Positions 6,781-31,517 of a stretch of 32,000 nt of DNA are shown piece by piece. The DNA comes from Synechococcus sp. A15-24. GTDB lineage: Bacteria; Cyanobacteriota; Cyanobacteriia; PCC-6307; Cyanobiaceae. Every line of letters starts with the position of its first letter. The stretch's first letter is position 1. The translations under genes and the position numbers were made by a program. Below the pieces are notes generated by a model. The model was given only the letters and a program-made list of their open reading frames with translations, had not been told where the DNA came from and made no database searches. The stretch spans positions 1,710,001 to 1,742,000 of the forward strand of contig NZ_CP047960.1 of assembly GCF_014280195.1 (NCBI RefSeq), written 5' to 3'.

Positions 6781-8940
6781 ATGACATCCAAAAATCAACT
6801 GAACTTTCCCTTCTCAGATCTCGTCGCTGGTTACATTCGCAGCGTCTCCTATCCAGAGATCTTTGACTGCAAGGGGATGGTCGAAGTGGAAACATCCGAT
6901 GGGAGGATGTATACAGTAAAAATAACCGACGCATGTTATGCAGAACTAGTACGTAACTTGGGAGAACCCTTTCAAGTTGCTCCTGACATTAAACAGATCC
7001 TCGTCGAGGATCGCTTTGTGCACGTCTATGGCCTTTTCTACCCCGAAGCAGACAGTCTCAAGTTTGAGGCGAAGCACATGTTGCTCTTCGGACGTGGCAA
7101 AGAAGATCTGCGCTTTGAAGATCAAAACTGGTGGATTCATCAAATCCAACAACTACTGAACTTCTACCTGGAAGCACAGTTCAAGGTGGTTGAAGGTGAA
7201 GCGATTGACTTCAAAAAATTCCGCACCGACCTGAGTGCTGAAGGTAAGAAACAGGATGGTGTTCAGAATCTCGATACGATCTCACGTTTGGTGTACGGCT
7301 TTGCAACGGCCTACATGATCACGGGCGATGAACGTGCTCTGGAAGCTGCCACAAACGGCACTGAGTACATGCAGCGTCACTTCCGCCATCAAAACAAAAG
7401 TGAAGGGATCTGCTACTGGTACAGCCAGATCGACATCCAGGACGATGGCAGCGTTCGCAAGTACATGGGATCGACAGCCGGTGGTGATGAAGGCGGCAAT
7501 GCAATCCCTTGTTATGAGCAGATCTATGCACTGGCCGGGCCAACACAGACATGGCGACTGACGGGTGGAGAGTCCATCCGCCACGACATCGATGACACCA
7601 TTGCATTCCTGAATCGGTACTACAAAGATCACGGTCCCTACGGCGGCTATTACTCCCACGTTGACCCTGTCACCTTCGACGCCAAGGCCGAGTCACTGGG
7701 TGTGAACAAAGCCAAGAAGAACTGGAACTCCGTTGGAGACCATGCTCCGGCATACCTGATCAACCTGTACCTCGCTACGGGAGAAGAAAGCTACGCAAAA
7801 TTCCTGGAAGATACGTTCGACACGATCTGCGATCATTTCCCCGATTACGGCTACAGCCCCTTCATGAACGAGAAGTTCTTTGAAGACTGGACGCACGATC
7901 TGAAATGGGGAATTCACCAAGCACGCTGCGTTGTTGGCCACAACCTGAAAGTGGCGTGGAACCTCACGCGCATGCACAGCCTTAATCCCAAGGAGAGCTA
8001 CAAAACTTTTGCGCACCAGATCGCTGATGCCATTCCTCCGGCCGGTTGCGACAACCAGCGGGGCGGCTGGTACGACATGATGGAGCGGACCTTGAAAGAC
8101 GGGGAAGAGCACTACCGCCGTGTGTGGCACGACCGAAAAGCGTGGTGGCAACAGGAACAGGGCATCCTGGCCTACTACATCATGGCTGGCGTCTACAACG
8201 ACAAGCCCGAATATCTGCGCTTTGCCCGAGAAGGAACAGCTTTCTACAATGGCTGGTTCCTCGACTACGAGTCTGGCGGCATCTACTTCAACGTTCTAGC
8301 CAATGGACAGCCCTATTCCCTTGGTTCTGAACGTGGAAAGGGCAGCCACTCCATGGCTGGTTACCACTCGTTCGAGCTCTGCTTCTTGGCGGCGATCTAC
8401 TCGAACCTGCTAGTCACAAAACAGCCAATGGATTTCTTCTTCCGTCCTGATCCACAGGGTTGGCCTGATAACAAACTGAGGGTTGCACCTGATCTGCTCC
8501 CAGCTGGCAGCGTTGAACTGGCTGAAGTCTGGATCGATGACAAATCTTTCTACGACTTCGACAAGTCAGCCATGATCGTGAATCTTCCTGATTCCGACAA
8601 ACCACTTCGCGTGCGAGTTCGGATTGAACCTGCAGGTCTTGGATTCAGTGCAGATCTGATGAGTTACGAAAACGGTATCGGCCGCTTCGCGCTTGATGGT
8701 GATCTCACAAAATGCAAACTGCCGCTGTTCAAGAAAGAGCTGGAGAAACTAAGCGGTTTGGCAGGTGTCGTTCTTGACATGACCAACCTTAAGACAATTG
8801 ATGATACTGGATGGAACTATCTGTTGTTCACCAAACAACAACGCGGTGCCTCATTCAGCCTTCAATTAACAGGTCTCAACAGTGAAATCAACCAATTACT
8901 GAAAGATGCTGAATTGGACGAAGAGTTCCAAGTAATTTGA
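6781..8940 (+). CDS. AGE-superfamily (N-acylglucosamine 2-epimerase-like, alpha/alpha-6 barrel) protein with an unassigned N-terminal domain and a C-terminal STAS domain
   Basis: Central region motifs are typical of the AGE/cellobiose-epimerase/YihS-type fold: ISRLVYGFATAYMITGDERALEAA..GTEYMQRHF, NQRGGWYDMM....RKAWWQQEQGILAY and ESGGIYFNVL....KGSHSMAGYHSFE. The last roughly 100 aa (GRFALDGDLT...GVVLDMTNLKTIDDTGWNYLL...LQLTGLNSEINQLLK) look like a SpoIIAA/STAS domain. Confidence 0.65.
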   Translation: MTSKNQLNFPFSDLVAGYIRSVSYPEIFDCKGMVEVETSDGRMYTVKITDACYAELVRNLGEPFQVAPDIKQILVEDRFVHVYGLFYPEADSLKFEAKHMLLFGRGKEDLRFEDQNWWIHQIQQLLNFYLEAQFKVVEGEAIDFKKFRTDLSAEGKKQDGVQNLDTISRLVYGFATAYMITGDERALEAATNGTEYMQRHFRHQNKSEGICYWYSQIDIQDDGSVRKYMGSTAGGDEGGNAIPCYEQIYALAGPTQTWRLTGGESIRHDIDDTIAFLNRYYKDHGPYGGYYSHVDPVTFDAKAESLGVNKAKKNWNSVGDHAPAYLINLYLATGEESYAKFLEDTFDTICDHFPDYGYSPFMNEKFFEDWTHDLKWGIHQARCVVGHNLKVAWNLTRMHSLNPKESYKTFAHQIADAIPPAGCDNQRGGWYDMMERTLKDGEEHYRRVWHDRKAWWQQEQGILAYYIMAGVYNDKPEYLRFAREGTAFYNGWFLDYESGGIYFNVLANGQPYSLGSERGKGSHSMAGYHSFELCFLAAIYSNLLVTKQPMDFFFRPDPQGWPDNKLRVAPDLLPAGSVELAEVWIDDKSFYDFDKSAMIVNLPDSDKPLRVRVRIEPAGLGFSADLMSYENGIGRFALDGDLTKCKLPLFKKELEKLSGLAGVVLDMTNLKTIDDTGWNYLLFTKQQRGASFSLQLTGLNSEINQLLKDAELDEEFQVI

Positions 8941-12284: not shown

Positions 12285-12338
12285 TTATTATAATCAATGT
12301 GGTCGCATTGTTAGGGCATGGCTAGTGTTGATTAGATG
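12285..12338 (+). promoter_or_regulatory. putative promoter and 5' leader element of MCO paralog 1 (duplicated upstream of paralog 2)
   Basis: A TATAAT lies at 12289-12294, within ttattataat. A 19-nt block, ggctagtgttgattagatg, lies at 12320-12338, exactly 30 nt before the start codon. The same layout recurs before paralog 2. Confidence 0.3.
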
Positions 12339-12349
12339 CAACTGATTTC

Positions 12350-15300
12350 ATGAATCTAGCGAATGCCTACATTATTGGTTCGGAAAATCACTCGTCATGG
12401 AGTCAAAATTTCGATCCGGAAGCTTACCTTAAAGTCCTCCCGCAGCACGACAAAAAGCTTGTTTACACAAGCCCCTGGCTTGAATGGCAACAAGGGAACA
12501 AAAACTACAGAGACGGCATCTATTCAGAAGAAGGGCCCAACGGAAGTTATTACTCGAGCTGGGGACCAGAGTCAGACGTCCTGGATGTCGAACTTACGCT
12601 GTCAGACCTCAACGAAATCACGATTCCAGGATTAGGAGTACTAACGCGTAGTACTGCAGACAATGGCACAGCCTACGACGATGGCTTTCAAGCTTACAAC
12701 GGACTCATCCCTGGTCCACTGCTTGTAGTAGATCCGGGAGACACGCTCAAAATTAGGCTTGTCAATGACTTAGAGAACAGAAGCGGGCTTGAACTTGCCG
12801 CTGACACCAATTTGCATACACACGGATTGCATGTAAGTCCACAAGGAGCTGGGGATAACGTTCTAGTTTCACTGTCACCTGGTGAGTCCTGGGAAACTGA
12901 AATCAAAATCCCTGAAAGTCACTTTGTTGGCCCCCAGTGGTACCACCCACATCTTCACGGCGCAACCAATTTACAAGTTTCAAATGGCTTGGCGGGGACC
13001 TTACTTGTCCTGGCATCTGAGGAAGAGGCTGAAGATCTGGACAAATTCAGCCCAGTGGATAATTCCTTCTACTGGATGGCAGTCCAAACTCAATCACTGC
13101 TTCAAGAGGAACGGCCTGCATCGGATACAGATCCTCTTAATCAGGATCCAAATGGGGGAGCCTACAGAATTGGAACGCCACCTATCTATACAGAAATAAA
13201 TGGAATCAAATATTACACCAAATCAGATGCAGCCTACATTGGATATAACTTCAAACCTGATTACTATTCCCCGATAACACCAGGAGGGGATCCATCGGGT
13301 ACTCCATTTGCCTACGGTGGAGGGCTTGCAGGAACCCCAACAGAAAATGTCATTCACACTGTTAATGGACAATACAATCCAACCCTCGATGTTGAGACAG
13401 GGGCCTGGAATGTATTTGGATTTTTAAATGAATCAGTCAATTCCCACTATGTCATTCAATTAATCCGAGAACATCAAGGTGAGTTGTCCCTAGAGGACTT
13501 CCAAGTGATTGCGGTTGACGGTGATGCTGCCGGAGTCGTATCTCAGAGACTGCAATTCGTCACTGAAACCCCTGTAATGGCACCAGGTAATCGAATGACT
13601 GTTCAACAGGCATTCACCGAACCTGGAACCTACTACTTTCTAGCTAACGGTACTGAAGAAATCCTGGGTGATCTCGCACCTGAAGTTGCCAACACGAGCC
13701 TGACCAATGCGTTTGGTGCACCAACACAATTCCAGGGGATCCATGATGGCCATCTGATCTGGGGAGCTCAAGTACTGGCTACGGTAGAGGTATCTGGTGA
13801 TCTATTTGAAGAAAGACCACCAGCGCCGGAGCCAATCGACTATTTACTGGAGGAGGCACAAGAAATTGATACCTGGGTAGCGGAAACCAAAGATGCAATC
13901 GAGCAGGGATCAATTAAGCAGAGAGAATTTGAATGGAATGCAAATTATTCAAGGGTTGCGGGGCCAGGAATAGATGACAACGACCCGTCAACATTTGAAA
14001 ACATGTATTGGATCAATGGCCGATGGTTCGGCCATTCTCCAAGTGAGCAACCTGTGGTTGCCATGCCAATGCTGGGGACCACAGAAGAATGGACTCTTGA
14101 GAACAGCTCACTTGGTTATGGTGCTGTTTGGGGTGAATGGCATCCATTCCACATTCATCAGAACGACTTTGTAGTCACTGAAATCAATGGCATCGATGTC
14201 GAAGATATACCATCATACCCAGCAAACCAACTGGTAGATACAGTTACACTCGCCGGCGCATATATACCTGGTTCAGCCACGGAAACAAATCCATACGGCA
14301 CGCCAGCATATTTCAACCCGATAACAAACAGCACCAATGATATACCACTCAACTTTCAAACAAAGATATTCATGAAATTCGAAGATTATCCCGGAGCCTA
14401 TGTTAATCACTGCCATATTCTATTTCATGAAGATGCAGGAATGATGCAAGCAGTAAAAATCATATTAAACACCGATTCGAATTACATCGGATCAGAAAGA
14501 CAAGATTCAAATCCATCATTCAGGATTGGAACGTCGATGATGGATGATTTTTCCATTCAAGCGTTCGGACCCAGAATCAAAAAGGCAAATATTGCCATCG
14601 GTGATATCAACTATGGCAAGTACTTCAAAAGGGAAAAGCTCGCCGAAACATTTGCAGGGGGGACTGAGGGAGAATCCGACAACATTGCAGACATAGCCAT
14701 CGTCAGCAATCGTGTACAAAGAAATAAAGCAGGATTTGATATCAAGCTATACGACGGAGACTCAGTCAATCAAGCTGTAACGGGATCCTATAAATTAAAG
14801 AAGGATCAAGGTAAATCGGCGGAAACCACACTTGCTGGAGACGAAAACCTACTCACAACAATCAAGGCCTTTGCTAAGAAGAAGTCGAGAACACTGAGGT
14901 CATCGGTTGCAATTGGTGATATCAACGGTGATGGACATGGTGACATCATCATTGGAATTGGAGGTAAGGATACGGAGCCATTGATCGAAATCTACAGCGG
15001 AAAAGATTATGAAAAGCTCGCCAAAATCAAGCCGTTTAGAAAAAACAACTCTAAAACAACGGTTAACATTGCAGCAGGTGATATTAATTCTGACAATTTT
15101 GTAGACATATTGGTCGGCCAAGGGGCAGGTGGAATGGGCATGGTCGAAGTTTACGATGGACGAGCTATAACATCAGTTGTCAAAAATAATGATGGCAGCA
15201 ATATCGATGCAGCAAAGACTCAAGATGTAAATCCATACAAAGGCAAAAAAGTCGCAAAGGTGACGGAGGCATACGCAGATATGTTCCATCCCTATGAAGG

Positions 15301-15769
15301 ATACACAGGTGAAGTTGATGTAGCCGCAGGCTATATTCTGCCAAGACCGAATGCATCAGAAGATAAAGGTCAGATTGTCCAGACAAGCTATGCAAACTTC
15401 ACAACACTTGCAGTTGATATGAAATCAAGCGAGGAAAACCCCTCGATCAGAAGCTTCTTCTATACCGGAGGAAGTGCACACGCCAATAACAGCAACTCCG
15501 CAGACGAAAGTACTGATGACAGTGGTGGATCACTGCCTTCACTCGCTGTATCCCTGAATATTGAGAAAAAAATTAATAGTATTAACAGTACTTACTTCGA
15601 TCTCTCGAACGCCCATGATGATCGAGGGATGAGCGGTCTTATCATCACAACCAAAAAGGGTGAGGAGTTTCTTCACTACATTGAGCCAACAACCGTGCAA
15701 CAAGGAGAGTTCTCCATCATGGACACTGTGGCAATTAATATCACACCAAACCAATCCTTCATAATATAA
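12350..15769 (+). CDS. multicopper oxidase (three cupredoxin-type regions, all four Cu-ligand motifs) fused to a C-terminal FG-GAP/VCBS-like repeat region, paralog 1
   Basis: The copper motifs are HTHGLH (12815-12832), HPHLH (12944-12958), HPFHIH (14141-14158) and HCHILFHEDAGMM (14408-14446). FG-GAP-like blades lie at about 14580-15345 (IAIGDINGDGHGDIIIGIGG, AAGDINSDNFVDILVGQGAGG). There is no N-terminal signal peptide. Confidence 0.85.
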   Translation: MNLANAYIIGSENHSSWSQNFDPEAYLKVLPQHDKKLVYTSPWLEWQQGNKNYRDGIYSEEGPNGSYYSSWGPESDVLDVELTLSDLNEITIPGLGVLTRSTADNGTAYDDGFQAYNGLIPGPLLVVDPGDTLKIRLVNDLENRSGLELAADTNLHTHGLHVSPQGAGDNVLVSLSPGESWETEIKIPESHFVGPQWYHPHLHGATNLQVSNGLAGTLLVLASEEEAEDLDKFSPVDNSFYWMAVQTQSLLQEERPASDTDPLNQDPNGGAYRIGTPPIYTEINGIKYYTKSDAAYIGYNFKPDYYSPITPGGDPSGTPFAYGGGLAGTPTENVIHTVNGQYNPTLDVETGAWNVFGFLNESVNSHYVIQLIREHQGELSLEDFQVIAVDGDAAGVVSQRLQFVTETPVMAPGNRMTVQQAFTEPGTYYFLANGTEEILGDLAPEVANTSLTNAFGAPTQFQGIHDGHLIWGAQVLATVEVSGDLFEERPPAPEPIDYLLEEAQEIDTWVAETKDAIEQGSIKQREFEWNANYSRVAGPGIDDNDPSTFENMYWINGRWFGHSPSEQPVVAMPMLGTTEEWTLENSSLGYGAVWGEWHPFHIHQNDFVVTEINGIDVEDIPSYPANQLVDTVTLAGAYIPGSATETNPYGTPAYFNPITNSTNDIPLNFQTKIFMKFEDYPGAYVNHCHILFHEDAGMMQAVKIILNTDSNYIGSERQDSNPSFRIGTSMMDDFSIQAFGPRIKKANIAIGDINYGKYFKREKLAETFAGGTEGESDNIADIAIVSNRVQRNKAGFDIKLYDGDSVNQAVTGSYKLKKDQGKSAETTLAGDENLLTTIKAFAKKKSRTLRSSVAIGDINGDGHGDIIIGIGGKDTEPLIEIYSGKDYEKLAKIKPFRKNNSKTTVNIAAGDINSDNFVDILVGQGAGGMGMVEVYDGRAITSVVKNNDGSNIDAAKTQDVNPYKGKKVAKVTEAYADMFHPYEGYTGEVDVAAGYILPRPNASEDKGQIVQTSYANFTTLAVDMKSSEENPSIRSFFYTGGSAHANNSNSADESTDDSGGSLPSLAVSLNIEKKINSINSTYFDLSNAHDDRGMSGLIITTKKGEEFLHYIEPTTVQQGEFSIMDTVAINITPNQSFII

Positions 15770-15844: not shown

Positions 15845-15898
15845 TTATTATAAATATCTGCAATACATTCTCAAGACTTGGCTAGTGTTAATTAGATG
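15845..15898 (+). promoter_or_regulatory. putative promoter and 5' leader element of MCO paralog 2
   Basis: A TATAAA lies at 15849-15854, within ttattataaa. The block ggctagtgttaattagatg lies at 15880-15898, again 30 nt before the start. It has one mismatch to the paralog-1 copy. Confidence 0.3.
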
Positions 15899-15909
15899 AG
15901 GCTTGCCCC

Positions 15910-18900
15910 GTGACTCTTAATGATGCATACATCATTGGTTCGGAAAATCACTCGTCATGGAGTCAAAATTTCGATCCGAAAGCATACCTTAAAGTCCTCC
16001 CACAACATAACCAAAAGCTTGCCTACACAAGCCCATGGCTTGAATGGCAACAAGGGAACAAAAACTACAGAGACGGCATCTATTCAGAAGAAGGGCCCAA
16101 CGGAAGTTATTACTCGAGCTGGGGACCAGAGTCAGACGTCCTGGATGTCGAACTTACGCTGTCAGAGCTCAACGAAATCACGATTCCAGGATTAGGAGTA
16201 CTAACGCGTAGTACTGAAGACAATGGCACAGCCTATGACGATGGCTTTCAAGCGTACAACGGACTCATCCCTGGCCCACTGCTTGTAGTAGATCCGGGAG
16301 ACACGCTCAAAATTAGGCTTGTCAATGACTTAGAGAACAGAAGCGGGCTTGAACTTGCCGCTGACACCAATTTCCATACACACGGATTGCATGTAAGTCC
16401 ACTAGGTGCAGGCGATAACGTTCTATTTTCGCTATCACCTGGGGATGCATGGGAAACTGAAATAAAAATCCCAGATAACCACTTTGTTGGACCTCAATGG
16501 TATCACCCCCACCTTCACGGAGCAACAAATCTCCAAGTATCAAACGGGCTCGCAGGAACACTTCTAGTATTAGCTTCAGAAGAAGAAGCCGATGATATAG
16601 ACAAATTTAGTCCAGTGGATAATTCTTTCTACTGGATGGCAATTCAAACACAATCTCTGCTTCAGCAAGAGCGACCAGCATCTTCGAATGACCCACTCAA
16701 TCAAGATCCAAACGGTCTCTCATACAGGATAGGAACACCACCTGTATTTACTGAAGTTGACGGCACAAAAGTATTTACAAAATCGGACGCAGCGTACATA
16801 GGTTACAACTTTAAGCCCGATTATTACGACCCTACTCAGCCAACAGGCGACCCATCAGGTACCCCATTTGCGTATGGAGCAGGGATAGCTGGAACACCAA
16901 CAGAAAATATAATTCATACAGTTAATGGCCAGTACAATCCAACCATTGACGTAGAAACTGGTCAATGGAATGTTTTTGGATTCCTAAATCAGTCCGTTAA
17001 CTCTCACTTTGTCATCCAACTTGTACGTGAATACAAAGGTGAGTTATCGCTTGAGGAATTTCAAGTGATCGCCGTTGATGGAGATGCAGCAGGAGTAGTT
17101 TCGCAGGCACTGCAATTTGTTACCGAAACACCAGTGATGGCTCCCGGCAATCGAATGACAGTTCAGCAAGCTTTTACAAAACCAGGTAAATATTATTTTC
17201 TTGCAAACGGAACAGAAGAAATCCTTGGAGAGTTGGCCCCAGAAGTGGCAAATATAGCCCCTATGAATTTATATGAAACTCCGAGTATTGAGTTCAATCC
17301 GGATTTTGTGCCGAGCGATGTTCAAGGTGCTCTCTACGCAGGAGCAGAAACATGGAACGAACTTAGAAGAGAGGTCTTTGAGGGACCTCTTGATCTATCT
17401 GGAATGCATTTCCCTCCAACATGGGATCTACGAGGATACGATCTGACAAATGTAGATCTAGATGACTCCTTCATGGGTTTGGTGAATTTGACTGATGTTG
17501 ACCTAAGAGGATCAAGTCTGAATAATGTCAACCTAATTGGTGCCAACGTAACCAATACAAATCTTTTCGATGTTGATCTAAGCGGCGCTCTTTTACCGGG
17601 TGGCATTGATCAAGCTTCTAACGCTAAATACGATCAAGACACATATCCATACCAAGGAATTCATGATGGCCACCTAATCTGGGGCGCACAAGTTCTCGCA
17701 ACAGTAGAGGTAACTGGTGAATCAATATCAAGCAGACCTGCCCCACCAGAACCAATTCAATACTTGCTTGAAGAATCAGAAAAGATTGACACTTGGGTAA
17801 GTGATACAAAAAATGCAATTGCCAATGATAATATAAAAAGGAGAAACTTTATTTGGGATGCAAACTATAGTCGGCTCCAAGAAGAAAATAGAATTATAGA
17901 TGACAATGATCCGTCAACATTTGAAGACATGTATTGGATTAACGGAAGGTGGTTTGGGCATTCGCCAAGTGAGCAACCTGTAGTTGCGATGCCAATGCTG
18001 GGGACCACTGAAGAATGGACTCTTCAGAATAGTTCCATAGGCTTTGGTGCAGGTGCTGTAGGAGAATGGCACCCATTTCACATTCACCAAAACGATTTTG
18101 TTGTCACAGAAATCAATGGCATAAATGTAGAGGATATACCATCATATCCAGCCAACCAACTTGTCGACACAGTTACACTAGCTAGTTCTTATGTTCAAGA
18201 TTCAGCTACTGCAAATAATCCCTATGGCAGCCCAGCATATTTCAATCCGATCACTGATAGCATAAATGGGATACCTCAGAATTTCGAAACCAAATTATTC
18301 ATGAAGTTCGAAGATTACACTGGAGCATATGTTAATCATTGTCATATTCTCTTTCACGAAGATGCAGGCATGATGCAGGCAGTGAAAGTAATCCTCAACA
18401 CTGACTCGAACTATATTGGCGCTGAAAAGCAAACCGGTAAGCCCACACTCAGGCTAGGATCATCAATGGTGGATACTTTTTCAATCGATAACAGCGATAA
18501 CTTTAGCAAAAAACTAAACATCGCAATTGGCGATATCAATTTTGGCAAGTTCTTTAGCATGGACAAACTCAGTGACACCTTTAAAGGTGGTACCAAGGGG
18601 GAATCTGATAATATCGCAGACATCGCAATTACCGGAGAAAAGATTGCGAGAAATGAAAGTGGTTTTCAAATAAATGTATATGATGGAGACTCAGTAAGTC
18701 AATCGGCGACAGGCTCATATAAATTAAAGAGAGATCAACAAAAGCAGTCCGAAATAGAATTGTCAGGTGAAGATCATCTTCTAGCAACAATCAATTCCTT
18801 TAGCAAAAAGAAGTCCAAATCAATATCCTCGTCACTGGCAGTCGGAGATATAAATGGTGACGGACACGGGGACATAATTATTGGGATTGGTGGGCCCAAA

Positions 18901-19704
18901 ACAGACCCTATGATTGAAATCTATAGCGGTAATAATTTCGAGAGAATGGCAAAGATAAAGCCATTTTGGCGTTATGGCATGAAAACAAGCATTAATATCG
19001 CCTCTGGAGACATTAATTCAGATAATTTTGTTGATATTCTTGTTGGCCAAGGTTCTGGAGGCATGGGGATGGTGGAAGTATTTGATGGGCGCGCCTTAAC
19101 ATCAGTCATTAAGAATAAACAGGGTAACAACATTGATGATGAGGAAACAGCAGGGATCAAACCATTCAAAGGGAAAAAAGTTGCGCAAGCGACAGAAGCA
19201 TATGACACTATGTTTCATCCATTCCCTGGATATACAGGTGAAGTAGATGTAGCAAGTGGTTATATTTTGCCACGCCCAAGCTACGATCTCGATGATGAAA
19301 TTTCAGAACAAAAAAAAGATCAAATCGTGCAGACAAGCTATGCGAATTTTACAACACTCGCAGTTGATAAGAGATCAAGCGAAGAAGACCCCTCAATCAA
19401 AAGCTTCTTCTATACAGGTGGAAGTTCGCATGCGAATCACAGCGATACCGAACAATCACGTGCTGATCACAGTGAAGGATTATTGCCATCTCTCGCAGTA
19501 TCTCTAAATATTGACAAAAAAATCACTAGCATTAACAATGCATTCTTCGATTTGTCGGACGCGCTTGATGATCGAGGAATGAATGGTCTAGTCATCACCA
19601 CTAGAAAGGGTGAAGAGTACCTTCACTATATAGAGCCAACAACAGTCCAAGAAGGTGAGTTTTCTATCATGGATACTGTAGCAATTAACATCACACCCAG
19701 CTAG
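15910..19704 (+). CDS. multicopper oxidase / FG-GAP fusion, paralog 2, with an inserted pentapeptide-repeat module
   Basis: It has the same four Cu motifs and the same FG-GAP region as paralog 1. Until the insertion it is collinear with paralog 1 at a constant offset of 3560 nt. The GTG start at 15910 aligns exactly with the ATG of paralog 1 (MTLNDAYIIGSENHSS versus MNLANAYIIGSENHSS). Confidence 0.85.
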   Translation: MTLNDAYIIGSENHSSWSQNFDPKAYLKVLPQHNQKLAYTSPWLEWQQGNKNYRDGIYSEEGPNGSYYSSWGPESDVLDVELTLSELNEITIPGLGVLTRSTEDNGTAYDDGFQAYNGLIPGPLLVVDPGDTLKIRLVNDLENRSGLELAADTNFHTHGLHVSPLGAGDNVLFSLSPGDAWETEIKIPDNHFVGPQWYHPHLHGATNLQVSNGLAGTLLVLASEEEADDIDKFSPVDNSFYWMAIQTQSLLQQERPASSNDPLNQDPNGLSYRIGTPPVFTEVDGTKVFTKSDAAYIGYNFKPDYYDPTQPTGDPSGTPFAYGAGIAGTPTENIIHTVNGQYNPTIDVETGQWNVFGFLNQSVNSHFVIQLVREYKGELSLEEFQVIAVDGDAAGVVSQALQFVTETPVMAPGNRMTVQQAFTKPGKYYFLANGTEEILGELAPEVANIAPMNLYETPSIEFNPDFVPSDVQGALYAGAETWNELRREVFEGPLDLSGMHFPPTWDLRGYDLTNVDLDDSFMGLVNLTDVDLRGSSLNNVNLIGANVTNTNLFDVDLSGALLPGGIDQASNAKYDQDTYPYQGIHDGHLIWGAQVLATVEVTGESISSRPAPPEPIQYLLEESEKIDTWVSDTKNAIANDNIKRRNFIWDANYSRLQEENRIIDDNDPSTFEDMYWINGRWFGHSPSEQPVVAMPMLGTTEEWTLQNSSIGFGAGAVGEWHPFHIHQNDFVVTEINGINVEDIPSYPANQLVDTVTLASSYVQDSATANNPYGSPAYFNPITDSINGIPQNFETKLFMKFEDYTGAYVNHCHILFHEDAGMMQAVKVILNTDSNYIGAEKQTGKPTLRLGSSMVDTFSIDNSDNFSKKLNIAIGDINFGKFFSMDKLSDTFKGGTKGESDNIADIAITGEKIARNESGFQINVYDGDSVSQSATGSYKLKRDQQKQSEIELSGEDHLLATINSFSKKKSKSISSSLAVGDINGDGHGDIIIGIGGPKTDPMIEIYSGNNFERMAKIKPFWRYGMKTSINIASGDINSDNFVDILVGQGSGGMGMVEVFDGRALTSVIKNKQGNNIDDEETAGIKPFKGKKVAQATEAYDTMFHPFPGYTGEVDVASGYILPRPSYDLDDEISEQKKDQIVQTSYANFTTLAVDKRSSEEDPSIKSFFYTGGSSHANHSDTEQSRADHSEGLLPSLAVSLNIDKKITSINNAFFDLSDALDDRGMNGLVITTRKGEEYLHYIEPTTVQEGEFSIMDTVAINITPS
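17254..17652 (+). other. 133-codon variable linker in MCO paralog 2 (13 codons in paralog 1 at 13694-13732) containing a pentapeptide-repeat module
   Basis: The flanks are conserved in both paralogs (LAPEVAN before, QGIHDGHLIWGAQVLATVEV after). The insert reads DLRGYDLTNVDLDDSFMGLVNLTDVDLRGSSLNNVNLIGANVTNTNLFDVDLSGALL, which has A(D/N)LXX-type repeats. Confidence 0.7.
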
Positions 19705-22139: not shown

Positions 22140-22571
22140 ATGACCGACGCAACCTATCAATGGGAATGGCCGCACACCCTGAAGTGGCCAAAGTTCAACA
22201 ATATGGGGGAAAATGTAGACACTCTCAAAAAACTTTTTCTCGCCGGAGAAGCGCTAAATGTCAACAACTTTATCAAGTTTTTTGCGGACGAATGCTACTA
22301 CCAATTTGGTAACTTTCCTCCTGCGAGGACGCCTCAAGAGATCAAAGCTGCATCACAAGGGTTCATTGAGTCATGCGAAGGACTACACCATCGCATCCTA
22401 AACATCTCCATTCCAAGCGAAGATACATTGCTTGTTGAAATGGTTGTGACCTACATCTCGCATAGTGGCAAGATTGTCACGCTTCCATGTTTTGATATCG
22501 TCAAGTACGAAGGAGCATTGATCAAGGAGCTAAAAATATTTATGGACATCAATCCTCTTTTCCAGGATTAA
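22140..22571 (+). CDS. NTF2-like (SnoaL / limonene-epoxide-hydrolase-like) small protein, array member 1
   Basis: It shares FIKFFADECYYQFGNFPPARTPQEI and VTLPCFDIVKYEGALIKELKIFMDINPLF with the next three ORFs. An alternative start is the ATG at 22203 (MGENVDTLKKLF). Confidence 0.6.
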   Translation: MTDATYQWEWPHTLKWPKFNNMGENVDTLKKLFLAGEALNVNNFIKFFADECYYQFGNFPPARTPQEIKAASQGFIESCEGLHHRILNISIPSEDTLLVEMVVTYISHSGKIVTLPCFDIVKYEGALIKELKIFMDINPLFQD

Positions 22572-22614
22572 TTTTCAATTTCTCGAAACACACTCCCATC
22601 CAATTTCACTATCA

Positions 22615-22983
22615 ATGATGTCAAACTCTGACACAGTACGCAGTCTTTTGAAGATGTTTGAATCCTTCAATGTGGAGGGATTTTTAGAACTTCTCACTGA
22701 AGATGCCGAGTATCGATTCGGTAATTATCCTGCAGCCGTTGGGCAAGAGAATATTGCCGCAACAATCAAGGCTAGTCACCTTGATGCAATTTCGGGGATT
22801 TCTTTTGAAATCAAATCCCTATACGAACTTGAAGATACTGTAGTAACGGAATTGATTTGTAACTATTCCCTCAAAAAAGGTGGAAATTTACCGCTTCCAT
22901 GCCTTGATATATTTAAGTTTCAAGGCGGGAAGGTTTCTGCTATGTTAGTTTTTATGGATGCAACTCCGCTGTTCACAGCATAA
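22615..22983 (+). CDS. NTF2-like small protein, array member 2
   Basis: It carries FLELLTEDAEYRFGNYPAAVGQENI and LPLPCLDIFKFQGGKVSAMLVFMDATPLF. Confidence 0.6.
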   Translation: MMSNSDTVRSLLKMFESFNVEGFLELLTEDAEYRFGNYPAAVGQENIAATIKASHLDAISGISFEIKSLYELEDTVVTELICNYSLKKGGNLPLPCLDIFKFQGGKVSAMLVFMDATPLFTA

Positions 22984-23025
22984 AGAATTTAATTCTAAAT
23001 CAATCCTATTATCACCCAATTAGCT

Positions 23026-23391
23026 ATGAATTCCGCACTTGTAACTTCTGTCAAAGAGGCTTATGCAGCCGTTGAATCGAACGACATCTCAGCGTATGTT
23101 CAATTCTTTACTGATGATGCTATCTACAAAGTAGCAAATTTCGACCCCGTCGTTGGGCCTGATGGCATACGTGCCTTGGCAGAACCACTTGTCGACATGT
23201 TTGAGTCCGTGACTCATGACATCACGACGATTTGGGAGGTCGAAAACACAGTAATTTGTGAAATGAATGTAACGTACAACCGCAAAGATGGCAAATCAGT
23301 TACGGTTCCATGCGTCGATGTCATCCACTTCAGCGACGGGAAAGTCAATGAATTGAAGGCATATATCGATACTTCACCAGCCTTTTCCTGA
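23026..23391 (+). CDS. NTF2-like small protein, array member 3
   Basis: It carries YVQFFTDDAIYKVANFDPVVGPDGI and VTVPCVDVIHFSDGKVNELKAYIDTSPAF. Confidence 0.6.
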   Translation: MNSALVTSVKEAYAAVESNDISAYVQFFTDDAIYKVANFDPVVGPDGIRALAEPLVDMFESVTHDITTIWEVENTVICEMNVTYNRKDGKSVTVPCVDVIHFSDGKVNELKAYIDTSPAFS

Positions 23392-23410
23392 ACAACCTGC
23401 ATTGAACAAA

Positions 23411-23770
23411 ATGGCATCTCTAACACTACAGCATGCAACAACGTTTCTTGGCGGTGCGGCGAATTTAGATGAATATCTAAATTTTTTCGCAAATGATTGT
23501 ACTTATCAAGTGGGAAACAATCCCGTGATCGTTGGGAAAGAAGCTCTCGGGCAAAGCTACGGTCGATTTAAAGGTATGGTTGAACGAGTTGAACATGAAA
23601 TCCTATCGTCGTACGAAAGCGAGAATATTGTGGTGATAGAGCTTAATGCCACATACCACAAGAAAGACGGTAAAACCGTAACCATTACATGCTTGGACTT
23701 GTTCACTATAATTGACCAAAAAATTAAGTCTCTACAGGTATTTGCAGACCTCAGTCCTCTTTTTAAATAA
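23411..23770 (+). CDS. NTF2-like small protein, array member 4
   Basis: It carries YLNFFANDCTYQVGNNPVIVGKEAL and VTITCLDLFTIIDQKIKSLQVFADLSPLF. I use the ATG at 23411; the ORF-track start at 23402 is TTG. Confidence 0.6.
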   Translation: MASLTLQHATTFLGGAANLDEYLNFFANDCTYQVGNNPVIVGKEALGQSYGRFKGMVERVEHEILSSYESENIVVIELNATYHKKDGKTVTITCLDLFTIIDQKIKSLQVFADLSPLFK

Positions 23771-23809: not shown

Positions 23810-24829
23810 ATGATTTCTCAACTTCGGAAGCTCTCCAATCAAATTTCTGCATTTGTTTTATCACTTGTTCTTTTCTGCTTCTCATTCCCTCCAAATGTTC
23901 ACGCAGCTACATCGACAAGGGTGGTTCAGGGAGATAAAATGAATATGGGTAAGGGCGAAGTTTGGACGTGGACAGAAGTCGAAAAGGGTACCGGCACACC
24001 GAGACGGTTGGGGATCACCCTGACCAAATCCGCTCTGGACGGACTTCCCGCTGATGATGAGAAGCCCGAGAAAGGGACTCTGAAGCTAAAACTCATCGAC
24101 GGAAGTCCGTGGCACAATTTTGAATATGAGATGCTTTTTCCTAAAGAGGCTGATCGTACCGCCTACAACCACATGGGGTTGAATTGGAACCCTGAAGGGC
24201 ATGGACCCCTAGAGGATGTCTTCTTTGAACCTCATTTAGACGTGCACTTCTATATGGCGACCACGGATTATCGTCATTCAATTACAAACGACAGCATGGT
24301 CGATCCCGACACTGAAGATCTGCTGGTACAAAACATTGAACCACCTAGAGATTTTCTTCCTGAAGGTTATTATCGTGCCCCAAATACCTCTGAGCCGAGG
24401 ATGGGGACCCACTATGCAGACATGAGCTCAGATCAACTCAAGCCACACAATTTTTCTAATATATTCCTGTTCGGGGGGCACAACGGCAACATCGTATTTT
24501 GGGAGCCTATGCTGACCAGAAAATATCTGCTCTCTAAGCCCGACTTCTCCGCCAAAATTCCCCAGCCTAAGGCTTATCCAGTGAGCGGTTATTATCCTCT
24601 TTCGTATAGCGTCAAATACGATACGAAGCGCGATCTCATCAATGTATCTCTTGATGAGCTCACGTTGAGAGCTGCATCTTATCCAGGTAATGTATATGGA
24701 GTTGACTCTTGCTTAGACTCCAAGATGGTCGACATAATTTTTACTCACAAAGAAGCCAAGCCAAAGGATTTGCAAATTCCAGCAAAATGTCAGCCTCTTG
24801 TCCCGATGATTAAACGAGCACTGAGCTGA
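23810..24829 (+). CDS. Sec-exported protein of unassigned family (shares a domain of about 290 aa with the N-terminus of the 26791..29250 product)
   Basis: The signal peptide is ISAFVLSLVLFCFSFPPNVHA/AT. The conserved motifs NPEGHGP, HLDVHFY, EPMLTRKYLLSK and IPQPKAYPVSGYYPLSY each have a counterpart in the 819-aa protein. Confidence 0.6.
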   Translation: MISQLRKLSNQISAFVLSLVLFCFSFPPNVHAATSTRVVQGDKMNMGKGEVWTWTEVEKGTGTPRRLGITLTKSALDGLPADDEKPEKGTLKLKLIDGSPWHNFEYEMLFPKEADRTAYNHMGLNWNPEGHGPLEDVFFEPHLDVHFYMATTDYRHSITNDSMVDPDTEDLLVQNIEPPRDFLPEGYYRAPNTSEPRMGTHYADMSSDQLKPHNFSNIFLFGGHNGNIVFWEPMLTRKYLLSKPDFSAKIPQPKAYPVSGYYPLSYSVKYDTKRDLINVSLDELTLRAASYPGNVYGVDSCLDSKMVDIIFTHKEAKPKDLQIPAKCQPLVPMIKRALS

Positions 24830-26790: not shown

Positions 26791-29250
26791 ATGTCTGATT
26801 TCACCCCTGTTCATGTTCCCCTTGATGGAGACGACTTTATCGTTTATGGTCCGACAGTAAAGCTCAACAAGCGAGCTGGATTCGAAGAATCAAAAGGTAG
26901 AATTCGATCATTTATGGTTTTCGATGGAGATCTTGACACTCCATTGGACATCGGAATGGAGTTCAACAAGGCAGCTCTGAAAAATTTGCCTGGATCCCTT
27001 GAGAATCGTCAAGACCGGGGTGATTATCTTGCGGGCGAATTTGAGATCGAGCTTGCGTATCCAGAGAACAGTACTGTTTTCAATCTACTGACGTGGACGT
27101 GGGTTGCTGGTCCTAATGGAACTCAAACTGACGGCCATGGACCCGACGGAGTTTACGACGTCGATCATTTCGATTTTCACTTTTACTTAAATTCTCAAGA
27201 AGTTAGAGATACCATTAATGTTTTCTATTCGCCAGATGAATACGCGAAGGCGCAGATTGCTCCCCCTGTTGATTTCTGGCCAGAGGACTACAAGCGTCCG
27301 GTCGACGCCTTCATGAATGGAATCGGAGTAGCTCCAGGCGATGGAAGTCACTGGAATAATGTACTTTATCCCGAATTTGAGCAGGTTGACAACGACGAGA
27401 TCTACCAGTTCTTTGAGTCCAGTGGCGTTCCCTTTGGTCCTGATCAAAGGACTGTTCAGTATGGCGCCTATGACGGGCACATGACGCTTCTCGAGCCGAT
27501 GACAACCCGAGACTATCTGCTCTCCAAAAAAAGTTCGTCAGACTCGATTCAGCAACCCGATAAATATTTTAAATCTGGATATTTTCCTAAAAGCTACGAA
27601 ATTGATTTTGTTAAAGGAGATGATTTTCCATATAAGGTCTATTTGAGTGATCTTGAATATCACGAGGCCTCGACACCACCGGAGAGGCGCAATGAACCTC
27701 CAACTGAAATCCTAATCGATAATAAAAAAATATATAATAATGTTGAATACCTTAATTTGGTCGGTGTTCTTGAGACCGTTGATGAGCATGGTCCATTTCG
27801 GAAAAAAGACGATCACGTTTATGCGCTTCCATTTGGAATTCCTCCGGTCCTGGTGGACGATGCTGAGGGCCGATTCATTGTTAACGGCAACCAAATTCTT
27901 ATCAATGATGATCCTGAGCTTGAAGCCGGTGAAACATATACAATCAAAGTTAGAAGCGTTGACTCAGGCGGTTTAAGTGTCGTGGAAGAAATTGAAATAG
28001 AGGTTGATGATCTAGGAGGACCCTCTAGCCCAACTCCTTCGAAGCAGCAAAGGAAGTTACTGGATGGATCTGATACTTGGAACATTTATAGGCTTTCAAA
28101 TCCAGACAAAAAAGTTAAACTTAAGAACACTGATCTACCTGGCATCGTATCTAGCATGGCAGGTCCAACATCGTTTGACCTGAGTAAAGCATTGTTGGAT
28201 GATGCAAATCTAAAAGGCAGCATTCTAGAGAGTGTGAACCTTCGCAAGGCTCAGCTTCGTAATGCCAATTTATACGGTGCGTACGCTTTTGCAGTTAATC
28301 TCTCGAAAACAGATCTGCGTAACGCAGACCTGCGCGGAGCAGACCTGAGTGCAGCAAATCTCAGGGGTGCTGATCTCAGAGGCGCTGATCTCAGAGGTGC
28401 CTTCCTTACAGCTGGCGCAGACTTAACGAATGCCAATCTTGAGGGTGCGAATCTCAACGGTGCCGACCTAATTACAGCCAATCTGACGGGCGCAAATTTC
28501 ACTGATGCGACAACAAAGAATGCATCTTTGAGGTTTACGACTGTGGACGATGCTGTGTTTGATAATGTTGATCTCTCAACCGTCAATGCATTTGGAGTTG
28601 ATTTTGATACAGCTGCCAGTATTGAAGACACGATCCTTCCCGAGGGAAGCACCTACACAGATCTCCAAGGTGCCTTGTTTGCTGGAGCAGACACTTGGAA
28701 TGAACTGCGTCGCGAAGTCTTTGAAGGTCCCCTTGATCTCAGTGGGATGGACTTTCCACCGATTGGTTTTGATCTGCAAGGCTACGATCTGACAAACGTC
28801 ACACTTGACGATTCCTACATGGAATTTGTCGACCTGACAGGAGTTGACCTGAGTGGATCCAGTCTTCGAGGAGCAAATATGTTTGGCGCGACGCTGTCTG
28901 AAGCAAACCTTGAAGATGCTGATCTAACTGGTGCATTTCTACCCGGCTCGATTCACGTTGAAACCAATTACAAAGATGCAATACTTGACAAGACAGTGTT
29001 TTCGGGAGCTGAAGTTAATGGAACTGATTTTACTAACGCAAGCTTTAAAGATGCTGATATTCGATTTGTGAACCAAGCAATTTCCAGAGAGATTGCTATG
29101 GGAGATTTTGAACCAGCCAACTTTACCGGTGCTGATTTAAGTGGATCCAGATTTAGGGCCTCAATTTTCAGAGGATCAACTTTTACTGGGGTTGATTTTT
29201 CTGAGCTTGAAGACGTTACTGCTACGGACTTCTCCGAGATCACGATTTAG
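26791..29250 (+). CDS. multidomain protein: unassigned His-motif domain (paralogous to 23810..24829), cadherin-like domain and pentapeptide-repeat blocks; no signal peptide
   Basis: The N-terminal domain carries TDGHGPDG, HFDFHFY, EPMTTRDYLLSKK and IQQPDKYFKSGYFPKSY. The cadherin-like segment is at about 27690-28005 (RFIVNGNQILINDDPELEAGETYTIKVRSVDSGGLSVVEEIEIEVDD). The A(D/N)LXX repeats include ADLRGADLSAANLRGADLRGADLRGAFL and run to the C-terminus. Confidence 0.7.
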   Translation: MSDFTPVHVPLDGDDFIVYGPTVKLNKRAGFEESKGRIRSFMVFDGDLDTPLDIGMEFNKAALKNLPGSLENRQDRGDYLAGEFEIELAYPENSTVFNLLTWTWVAGPNGTQTDGHGPDGVYDVDHFDFHFYLNSQEVRDTINVFYSPDEYAKAQIAPPVDFWPEDYKRPVDAFMNGIGVAPGDGSHWNNVLYPEFEQVDNDEIYQFFESSGVPFGPDQRTVQYGAYDGHMTLLEPMTTRDYLLSKKSSSDSIQQPDKYFKSGYFPKSYEIDFVKGDDFPYKVYLSDLEYHEASTPPERRNEPPTEILIDNKKIYNNVEYLNLVGVLETVDEHGPFRKKDDHVYALPFGIPPVLVDDAEGRFIVNGNQILINDDPELEAGETYTIKVRSVDSGGLSVVEEIEIEVDDLGGPSSPTPSKQQRKLLDGSDTWNIYRLSNPDKKVKLKNTDLPGIVSSMAGPTSFDLSKALLDDANLKGSILESVNLRKAQLRNANLYGAYAFAVNLSKTDLRNADLRGADLSAANLRGADLRGADLRGAFLTAGADLTNANLEGANLNGADLITANLTGANFTDATTKNASLRFTTVDDAVFDNVDLSTVNAFGVDFDTAASIEDTILPEGSTYTDLQGALFAGADTWNELRREVFEGPLDLSGMDFPPIGFDLQGYDLTNVTLDDSYMEFVDLTGVDLSGSSLRGANMFGATLSEANLEDADLTGAFLPGSIHVETNYKDAILDKTVFSGAEVNGTDFTNASFKDADIRFVNQAISREIAMGDFEPANFTGADLSGSRFRASIFRGSTFTGVDFSELEDVTATDFSEITI
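28180..29230 (+). repeat. coding pentapeptide-repeat region (includes 15-nt tandem units around 28330-28395)
   Basis: Nucleotide units such as ggtgctgatctcaga / ggcgctgatctcaga translate to GADLR GADLR. The repeat periodicity continues, with interruptions, to the end of the gene. Confidence 0.6.
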
Positions 29251-31353: not shown

Positions 31354-31435
31354 GGGTCGGTGCCCGAGTGGTTAATGGGGGCGGACTGTAAATCCGCTGG
31401 CTCTGCCTACGTTGGTTCAAATCCAACCCGGCCCA
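31354..31435 (+). tRNA. tRNA-Tyr (anticodon GTA), long variable arm, CCA not encoded
   Basis: I folded it by hand. The acceptor stem is GGGTCGG/CCGGCCC. The D arm is CCCG..GGGG. The anticodon stem-loop is GCGGA-CTGTAAA-TCCGC. A long variable arm and the T arm GTTGG-TTCAAAT-CCAAC follow, with discriminator A. The layout parallels E. coli tRNA-Tyr. Confidence 0.9.
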
Positions 31436-31445
31436 TCCTCCACAT

Positions 31446-31517
<72 letters not shown>

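Follow-up and report, generated by a model that had tools for sequence, protein, structure and literature searches.

The pentapeptide-repeat family is defined by the presence of eight repeats, and its domains are known as protein-binding surfaces, as in the DNA mimics MfpA and Qnr and in the luminal domain of SV2 (PMC8145042). The SV2 luminal domain is a 4.5–5 coil helix in a loop of a transporter with 12 transmembrane segments, and it binds botulinum toxin via the exposed, uncapped edge of its last coil (PMC8145042). Among the laccases, the methionine-rich segment of Escherichia coli CueO and the beta-hairpin of the Thermus enzyme are lineage-specific inserts. Here we report an oxidase that carries a lineage-specific insert too, in this case a pentapeptide-repeat module. 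In a 32,000-nucleotide stretch of the Synechococcus sp. A15-24 genome (NZ_CP047960.1, positions 1,710,001 to 1,742,000; hereafter the window, to which coordinates refer unless stated), the second of two tandem multicopper oxidases, MCO2, has this module in the linker that joins cupredoxin domains 2 and 3, and the counterpart of the module lies 9 kb away in the gene of an 819-amino-acid (aa) protein. We consider it highly probable that this arrangement reflects an ancient copy of the 819-aa protein's module into the MCO2 linker, which selection then kept. The evolutionary and structural parts of this account are well supported, and we hold them with high confidence. The insert is a clear and narrowly distributed case of domain shuffling, in an architecture variant that has not been described before, built from families that are themselves known. 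A literature search of the accessible papers, which also covered marine Synechococcus islands, found no description of MCO2, of an oxidase with a pentapeptide domain, or of the cyanobacterial multicopper oxidase–FG-GAP (MCO-FG-GAP) family. Homologous proteins and loci from other assemblies are cited below by P and L numbers, respectively.

The insert in MCO2 and its counterpart in the 819-aa protein

The protein that received the module, MCO2 (15910..19704, + strand, 1264 aa), is a laccase-like multicopper oxidase of three domains whose C-terminal region consists of FG-GAP repeats. The Pfam families detected in it were Cu-oxidase_3, Cu-oxidase_2, FG-GAP, and Pentapeptide. Its tandem paralog MCO1 (12350..15769, + strand, 1139 aa) is without the insert and has a linker of ancestral length. 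Between the motifs LAPEVAN and QGIHDGH, MCO1 has 13 codons (13694–13732, with LAPEVAN ending at 13693) and MCO2 has 133 (17254–17652), and on this point the coordinates and sequences agree with the preliminary description. The 133 codons are all present, yet the net gain is 120 rather than 133, as the ends of the linker are ancestral. A repeat finder places the jump in the MCO1/MCO2 register at the insert, from 3560 to 3920 nt, a difference of 360 nt or 120 codons. Both BLASTP and MAFFT align the 11–14 codons next to LAPEVAN, as well as the closing (P)Y of the MCO2 segment, with the ancestral linker, so the foreign segment spans ~17296–17652, with edges uncertain by about ±3 codons. The flanks of the insert align without gaps to MCO1 and to 117 homologs.

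The retained linker, IAPMNLYETPSIEF (17254..17295, + strand), is the counterpart of TSLTNAFGAPTQF in MCO1 according to BLASTP and MAFFT, and it is disordered in the AlphaFold2 (AF2) models. The inserted segment itself (17296..17652, + strand, net +120 codons) consists of an N-tether (17296–17316), a leader, DVQGALYAGAETWNELRREVFEGPLDLSGMHFPP (17317..17418), whose two predicted alpha-helices cap the N-terminal end of the beta-helix, 12 pentapeptides (17422..17601) supported by PF00805, AF2, Foldseek, and the repeat register, and a C-tether (17602–17652), all on the + strand. The twelve repeats are in register (WDLRG, YDLTN, VDLDD, SFMGL, VNLTD, VDLRG, SSLNN, VNLIG, ANVTN, TNLFD, VDLSG, and ALLPG) and, being contiguous, satisfy the eight-repeat definition of the family; the PF00805 score was 28.4 bits against a cut-off of 20.2. 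An Rfam scan of the insert region returned no match, and NCBIfam gave only generic, sub-threshold matches on MCO2 and the 819-aa protein. A 90-aa ATG-initiated open reading frame runs antisense to the module (17334–17606, − strand) within the + frame that is under purifying selection, and it is probably an artifact of repeat composition.

In BLASTP, the 133-aa segment of MCO2 matched the 819-aa protein at 70 of 106 positions (66%, E 2e-43), pairing MCO2 residues 469–573 with residues 623–728 of the 819-aa protein. The preliminary description had counted ~60% amino-acid identity by hand; the match it saw is real, and the computed figure is higher. It had also called the first 34 residues nearly identical, and this non-repeat leader, aligned alone, shared 30 of 34 residues with residues 624–657 of the 819-aa protein at E 2e-20, so the similarity extends beyond that of generic repeats. 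At the DNA level the two modules are 64–74% identical, and the repeat finder independently paired 17425–17519 with 28771–28865 at 74%. The module ends given earlier, 17640 and 28977, lie 10–13 codons past LSGALLPG (17601) and LTGAFLPG (28947), respectively, and so beyond the last pentapeptide, although the NAK/NYK stretch they reach into is still alignable.

The donor, the 819-aa protein (26791..29250, + strand), begins with a TTHB210-like domain, which a cadherin-like region follows, and it has two modules that each join a leader to pentapeptides, m1 (~aa 415–615) and m2 (~aa 621–819); pentapeptide families were detected in it by Pfam. The donor segment is the first half of m2 (aa 623–728; 28657..28974, + strand), comprising a leader (28660–28761, + strand) and the first 12 pentapeptides of m2 (28768–28947, + strand). 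Two side observations concern this protein. First, it shows an internal duplication (28033–29247), with m1 and m2 35% identical in the window and 49–63% identical in distant members of the family. Second, its N-terminal domain (aa 35–296; 26791–27680) is a paralog of the 339-aa TTHB210-like protein encoded at 23810–24829 (28%, E 3e-20); Pfam misses this domain in the 819-aa protein, and TTHB210-type domains at ~30% identity occur in many bacterial phyla.

AF2 modeled MCO2 residues 1–860, on 56 homologs, with a predicted TM-score (pTM) of 0.81 and a predicted local distance difference test (pLDDT) above 85 in the core. When this model was compared with the Protein Data Bank by Foldseek, Thermus thermophilus laccase was matched at E 1.9e-28, with a TM-score normalized to target of 0.76, and CueO, CotA, and bilirubin oxidase were further matches. 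Together with Pfam, these models predict three cupredoxin domains in the laccase arrangement. The four copper-binding motifs of the type-1 and trinuclear sites (HxH, HxH, HxxHxH, and HCHxxxHxxxxM) are present, and the columns of the ligands H156/H158, H199/H201, H721/H724/H726, H810-C811-H812, H816, and M821 are invariant or near-invariant in the 56-sequence alignment with MCO2 as reference. Because all copper ligands are retained, MCO2 most likely still works as an oxidase, to which an extra surface has been appended. The copper-binding loops (residues 809–827) had pLDDT < 50 in the 860-residue model. In the chain, the insert follows the final elements of domain 2, and 12 residues separate it from the strand that opens domain 3 (residues 594–602). 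A long, family-specific helix follows that strand in the AF2 model (MCO2 residues 617–638, window 17740–17830), roughly at the position of the methionine-rich helix of CueO, where it might cover the type-1 copper site.

Modeled alone, on 14 module sequences, the module reached pLDDT ~90 over the coils with a strand every 5 residues, and the leader formed helices at residues 22–29 and 31–40 of the 133-aa segment (pLDDT 78–87), while the ends of the model (residues 1–19 and ~120–133) were disordered. Foldseek matched this model to Np275, Rfr23, Alr1298, HetL, and MfpA (probability 1.00) and to the SV2 luminal domain. The module is thus predicted to be a pentapeptide beta-helix of three coils, capped by helices and flanked by disordered tethers, and the beta-helix that had been proposed inside the oxidase is upheld by the Pfam score and the predicted Rfr fold. 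The separate beta-helix was obtained when the module was modeled alone; in the 860-residue model the insert had pLDDT 33–54, and its placement relative to the type-1 copper site was not modeled confidently. Since only the first half of m2 was copied, the grafted helix is short, with three coils and an uncapped final coil.

Selection on the insert and its possible function

Synonymous sites between insert and donor are saturated, with a proportion of differing sites (pS) of 0.76 for the whole module, 0.85 for the leader, and 0.69 for the coils, which indicates that the copy is old. Insert and donor are 64% identical within a genome and also 64% identical across genomes, so there has been no recent gene conversion between them, and ongoing conversion was rejected on the basis of these two results. 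Among four orthologous inserts (window, L001, L002, and L003), the ratio of nonsynonymous to synonymous divergence (dN/dS) was 0.14–0.22 for the insert and 0.03–0.04 for its leader, compared with 0.06–0.12 for the adjoining oxidase domains and 0.13–0.20 for the C-terminal tail. Such ratios indicate that the insert is under purifying selection. The leader was 100% identical between MCO2 and its ortholog P0002, 88% identical between copy and donor, and 56% identical between the 819-aa protein and its relative P0122. This last value shows that the leader can vary within the family; in both proteins here, nevertheless, it is frozen.

The likeliest function of the module, which we propose tentatively and by analogy, would be that of a protein-binding or localization element. 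We favor docking or localization because known pentapeptide domains bind proteins and because both proteins look extracytoplasmic: relatives of MCO2 carry RTX repeats, and relatives of the 819-aa protein carry signal-peptide-like N-termini or RTX repeats, which suggests such a location for both. Partners could be bound by the first coil and the conserved cap together or, in the manner of SV2, by the C-terminal coil edge, which is uncapped and newly exposed. If the docking role is true, it would provide a testable function for a cyanobacterial pentapeptide domain and link two uncharacterized island proteins. A more specific version, which we regard as doubtful, is that the copied cap and first coils act as a portable address tag, giving the two proteins the same envelope or extracellular partner or allowing them to associate with each other. 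The preliminary description had argued for a functional link between the two proteins, for example by way of a shared docking partner, and the evidence bearing on it is circumstantial. Some support for a shared partner may be seen in the leader, frozen at 88% identity (30/34) despite the saturated synonymous sites, and the MCO2 and 819-aa genes co-occur in three long loci (window, L001, and L003). If true, a secreted oxidase would be recruited to the site of the 819-aa protein, a natural example of enzyme re-targeting by a grafted beta-helix.

Several points limit these readings. We know of about five sequences with the insert, and L001 and L003 among them barely differ, which leaves the selection estimate with few independent comparisons. 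The conservation of the cap may come from folding requirements only. Between copy and donor, the outward-facing coil positions are only 53% identical, as against 75% for the inward-facing ones (i−2, i), and the island at L084 has the 819-aa gene without MCO2.

It is unlikely, in our judgment, that the insert is a tolerated passenger, with selection acting merely on foldability or solubility so that the oxidase is not damaged. A passenger would be easily accommodated in an inter-domain surface linker with flexible tethers, and it would fit the better conservation of the inward-facing positions, but the insert has stayed intact, at the dN/dS given above, across lineages in which flanking dS reaches 0.5–0.9. 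Island variants with the insert-less MCO1 type alone do exist; among MCO2-type genes, however, no deletion variant was found, and L002 and L083 retain the insert-bearing gene as the sole oxidase present. The identity of the leader in MCO2 and P0002, and its 88% identity to the donor at saturated synonymous sites, also count against a passenger.

A role in catalysis, in which the module would gate the type-1 copper or dock an electron donor, much as CueO uses its methionine-rich insert and Thermus laccase its beta-hairpin, is improbable. Bacterial oxidases of the same fold do have lineage-specific inserts over the type-1 site, and our fold matches included the hairpin and methionine-rich deletion mutants 9cpm, 8r4h, and 2yxw; however, the gating inserts known so far lie inside domain 2 or domain 3 as short segments and are not autonomous linker domains. 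The position of the insert, 12 residues ahead of the opening strand of domain 3, which leads into the family-specific helix 617–638, would be compatible with gating, whereas the long disordered tethers favor a loosely attached domain, and the position of the module relative to the copper site is without a confident model. Docking or localization of an oxidase that is otherwise intact remains the reading we prefer.

Origin of the insert

The direction of transfer was approached through the family of the 819-aa protein, which is small: P0121 is 96% identical to it, P0122 65%, P0123–P0125 52–54%, and P0126 38%. Members down to 52% identity have a common architecture with m1 and m2 at fixed positions, and in the family alignment the position of m2 is identical in P0122–P0125. 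The leader consensus of the distant members, LLQG..AWNQFR..NP...DLSG.DLPP, is a variant of the general pentapeptide cap motif, while the leader of the window lineage is derived (TWNELRREVFEGPLDLSGM.FPP), and it is this derived version that the MCO2 insert has. The insert is 64–67% identical to m2 of the window lineage, 47–50% to m2 of P0122, ~35% to m2 of P0123–P0125, and ~31–35% to m1. In a distance-based neighbor-joining tree of 17 modules (102 ungapped columns, 500 bootstraps), the insert and window-lineage m2 grouped to the exclusion of P0122 m2 in 99.6% of bootstraps. Because the position of m2 is fixed in relatives that are 52–65% identical, and because the insert nests with m2 of the island lineage, these comparisons indicate that the transfer ran from the 819-aa gene to MCO2. 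The preliminary description had suggested that a module moved between two genes of one island, and the present analysis agrees and adds the direction.

Two points reduce the weight of the nesting. In the coil region alone, m2 of the 819-aa protein shares 68% identity with P0122 m2 but 62% with the insert, so the nesting signal comes largely from the leader, with the coils of the insert evolving faster after transfer. In addition, P0122 m2 could inflate the signal as a fast-evolving branch.

Transfer from MCO2 to the 819-aa gene, or into both from a third, unsampled donor, is in our view very improbable. The reverse direction was rejected because m2 is native to the 819-aa family, where its position and the two-module architecture are the same in P0122–P0125, and because the insert is nested in the m2 tree; moreover, P0122–P0125 keep the ancestral AWNQFR..NP leader, whereas the insert has the derived one. 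Thin sampling of close relatives leaves some room for a third source, as a homology search with a 70-aa query (leader and first coil) gave one candidate and no scoring match, and a metagenome scan with the module found just one further locus, L083. However, an exhaustive HMMER search with the module, which covered 1.84 billion representative proteins and returned 19,973 matches at E ≤ 0.001, contained no closer third source. Its sole further full-length match was P0122, of the 819-aa family (query positions 20–124), and the remaining matches were generic pentapeptide proteins at 30–45% identity that did not span the leader.

The absence of the insert from MCO1 had alternatively been explained by a deletion, and this part of the preliminary description did not hold. 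Both PF00805 and the long span were observed in just 2 of the 120 best MCO2 homologs, the orthologs P0001 (93% identical) and P0002 (87%). The span corresponding to MCO2 residues 430–600 is 171 residues in MCO2, P0001, and P0002, and 39–55 residues in MCO1 and the other 117. The known carriers are MCO2, these two orthologs, and the loci L003 and L083. Identity matrices define an MCO2-type clade (window, P0001, and P0002) and an MCO1-type clade (MCO1, P0003, the MCO1 of L001, and P0004), which are sisters relative to outgroups at ~60% identity, all of them without the insert. As only two MCO2 orthologs among 120 homologs carry the insert, it was gained rather than deleted from MCO1, and the distribution indicates a single gain on the stem of the MCO2 clade. 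The orthologue survey that had been suggested for the ancestral state thereby points to the state without insert, found in MCO1 and the 117 other homologs.

That the insert was ancestral to both paralogs and precisely deleted from MCO1 is hardly credible. The two genes are tandem paralogs, and L002 and L083, with the insert-bearing oxidase alone, could be read as the original single-copy state, but the insert is missing in all 117 other homologs across cyanobacteria, the MCO1-type linker keeps the length and motif pattern of the outgroups, and the deletion would require a gain followed by an exact loss. Beyond the first ~150 codons, MCO1 and MCO2 differ to saturation at synonymous sites, and each gene has separate orthologs. 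Deletion in MCO1 was rejected on the short linker of the 117 others and its outgroup length in MCO1. Finally, we regard as negligible the chance that the similarity is generic pentapeptide low complexity or convergence instead of specific common descent: pentapeptide repeats are abundant in cyanobacteria, as the number of HMMER matches to the insert illustrates, and the G...WN.WR leader motif caps such domains widely (5 of 149 top matches), but the leader match of 30/34 at E 2e-20, the absence of the leader variant TWNELRREVFEGPLDLSGM from all other representative matches, the generic matches that stop short of the leader, and the mere 31–35% identity of the 819-aa protein's own m1 all oppose it, and the candidate was rejected.

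The history that we propose, copying from the 819-aa gene into MCO2, begins with an in-frame illegitimate insertion of ~360 nt, copied from the 819-aa gene 9 kb away into the linker between domains 2 and 3. The copied piece is the front half of m2, that is, the two-helix N-terminal cap (the leader) and 12 pentapeptides in three coils. The copying was a single event on the MCO2 stem, in a lineage where the oxidase cluster and the 819-aa segment had become neighbors. The product is predicted to be an autonomous capped beta-helix, which two disordered tethers of ~15–20 residues connect to the oxidase core, and purifying selection has since kept the module in an oxidase that is otherwise intact.

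Genomic setting and comparison with described proteins

MCO2 and the 819-aa gene lie in a low-G+C island at ~4.4–30.1 kb, where G+C content is 42–50% compared with ~60% in the flanks. The left flank has the housekeeping genes hemB, dnaJ, and a SulP permease gene, and the right flank has miaE, aroQ, and genes for tRNA-Tyr and tRNA-Thr (31354–31517). The island encodes an isoamylase-like GH13 protein, a 719-aa protein, a TPR/2-oxoglutarate (2OG)-Fe(II) oxygenase, an EthD protein, and a glyoxalase-fold protein; MCO1, MCO2, a 187-aa protein, DJ-1/PfpI, and a CMD-family protein; and four SnoaL-like proteins, the 339-aa TTHB210-like protein, an SLH-OprB porin of cyanobacterial type, and the 819-aa pentapeptide-repeat protein. 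The four SnoaL-like genes (121–143 aa) are in tandem at 22140–23770 and adjoin the DJ-1/PfpI, CMD, EthD, glyoxalase-fold, and 2OG-oxygenase genes. The composition of this set would fit a pathway around the oxidases in which a small aromatic or quinone-type compound undergoes oxidative tailoring or is detoxified.

The nearest genomes are the marine Synechococcus single-cell assemblies GCA_003283165.1 (L001) and AG-676-F02 (L003), both of which are collinear with the window. In Synechococcus BS307-5m-G38 (L085), there is one insert-less oxidase, the oxidase cluster abuts miaE/aroQ, and the segment of four SnoaL, TTHB210-like, porin, and 819-aa genes is missing. As the cluster in L085 is without both the 819-aa segment and the insert, donor and recipient are neighbors only in the copy-bearing lineage, and since its oxidase cluster already lies at miaE/aroQ without the SnoaL-to-819 segment, the island would have grown in steps.

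The oxidase content of the island is polymorphic. MCO1 and MCO2 are both present in the window, L001, and L003; L084 has the MCO1 type and the 819-aa gene and no MCO2; and L002 and L083 have the insert-bearing MCO2 type alone, after the glyoxalase gene. Between the window and L001, the MCO1 copies are saturated (pS ~0.8) and the MCO2 copies have dS 0.2–0.27. Polymorphic oxidase content together with this unequal divergence of MCO1 and MCO2 points to a mosaic, recombining island. We also observed a recent gene-conversion tract between MCO1 and MCO2 (12306–12800 and 15866–16360) that covers the first ~150 codons and ~44 nt upstream, with pS 0.05–0.22 compared with 0.6–0.85 in the remainder of the genes. 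The tract was not observed in L001 and ends far short of the insert, and its direction would be MCO2 to MCO1, as the 5′ end of the window MCO1 resembles MCO2-type sequence. In L083 (positions 8100–8400 of that locus), the oxidase is called as 1202 aa and its last ~60 codons continue in another frame, which is either an assembly frameshift or a pseudogene.

What makes this case useful is that donor, recipient, direction, approximate boundaries, and pre-insertion state can all be identified inside one 26-kb island. It shows that a multicopper oxidase linker can take up a short, capped pentapeptide beta-helix and that selection then keeps it, which identifies a permissive insertion site for laccase engineering, and it is relevant to the pentapeptide-repeat field, where most proteins have no assigned function. 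Its impact for now is modest, because few single-cell genomes and metagenome contigs carry the insert and both proteins are uncharacterized.

The closest relatives of the host are the cyanobacterial MCO-FG-GAP proteins (Synechococcus PROS-U-1, Nostoc, and Anabaena), which are homologous to the MCO2 core and FG-GAP region at 37–60% identity and are annotated as 'multicopper oxidase domain-containing protein' or 'DUF4114 domain-containing protein'. The closest of them, P0005, has the same neighborhood of 2OG-oxygenase, EthD, glyoxalase, 187-aa, DJ-1, and CMD genes. None of 117 such relatives has a pentapeptide domain or long linker, and many carry C-terminal RTX or DUF4114 modules, whereas MCO2 has neither. 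The solved laccases (Thermus thermophilus 2xu9/6wcn, E. coli CueO, and Bacillus CotA) have the same fold, copper motifs, and Pfam families as MCO2. However, MCO2 is only 12–16% identical to them, has no N-terminal signal peptide, and has a core of ~830 residues including the insert, compared with 440–510, plus a C-terminal FG-GAP region of ~430 residues. Its insert is a complete foreign domain in the linker between domains 2 and 3, while those of the solved laccases are short loops within cupredoxin domains.

Like the Rfr proteins (Np275/Np276, Rfr23, Alr1298, HetL, and MfpA/Qnr), the MCO2 module has contiguous A(D/N)LXX-type repeats. It differs from them in having just three coils and no C-terminal cap, and in being nested in an enzyme chain, neither stand-alone nor a terminal fusion; unlike the MfpA/Qnr type, nothing in it indicates DNA mimicry. 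SV2 is a eukaryotic membrane transporter and MCO2 a soluble bacterial oxidase, and their sequence relation is limited to the repeat. Even so, the SV2 luminal domain, whose structures 9fyq, 8jlg, and 7uia were among the fold matches of the module, is the nearest architectural analog, since in both proteins a short pentapeptide beta-helix is nested in an unrelated host chain.

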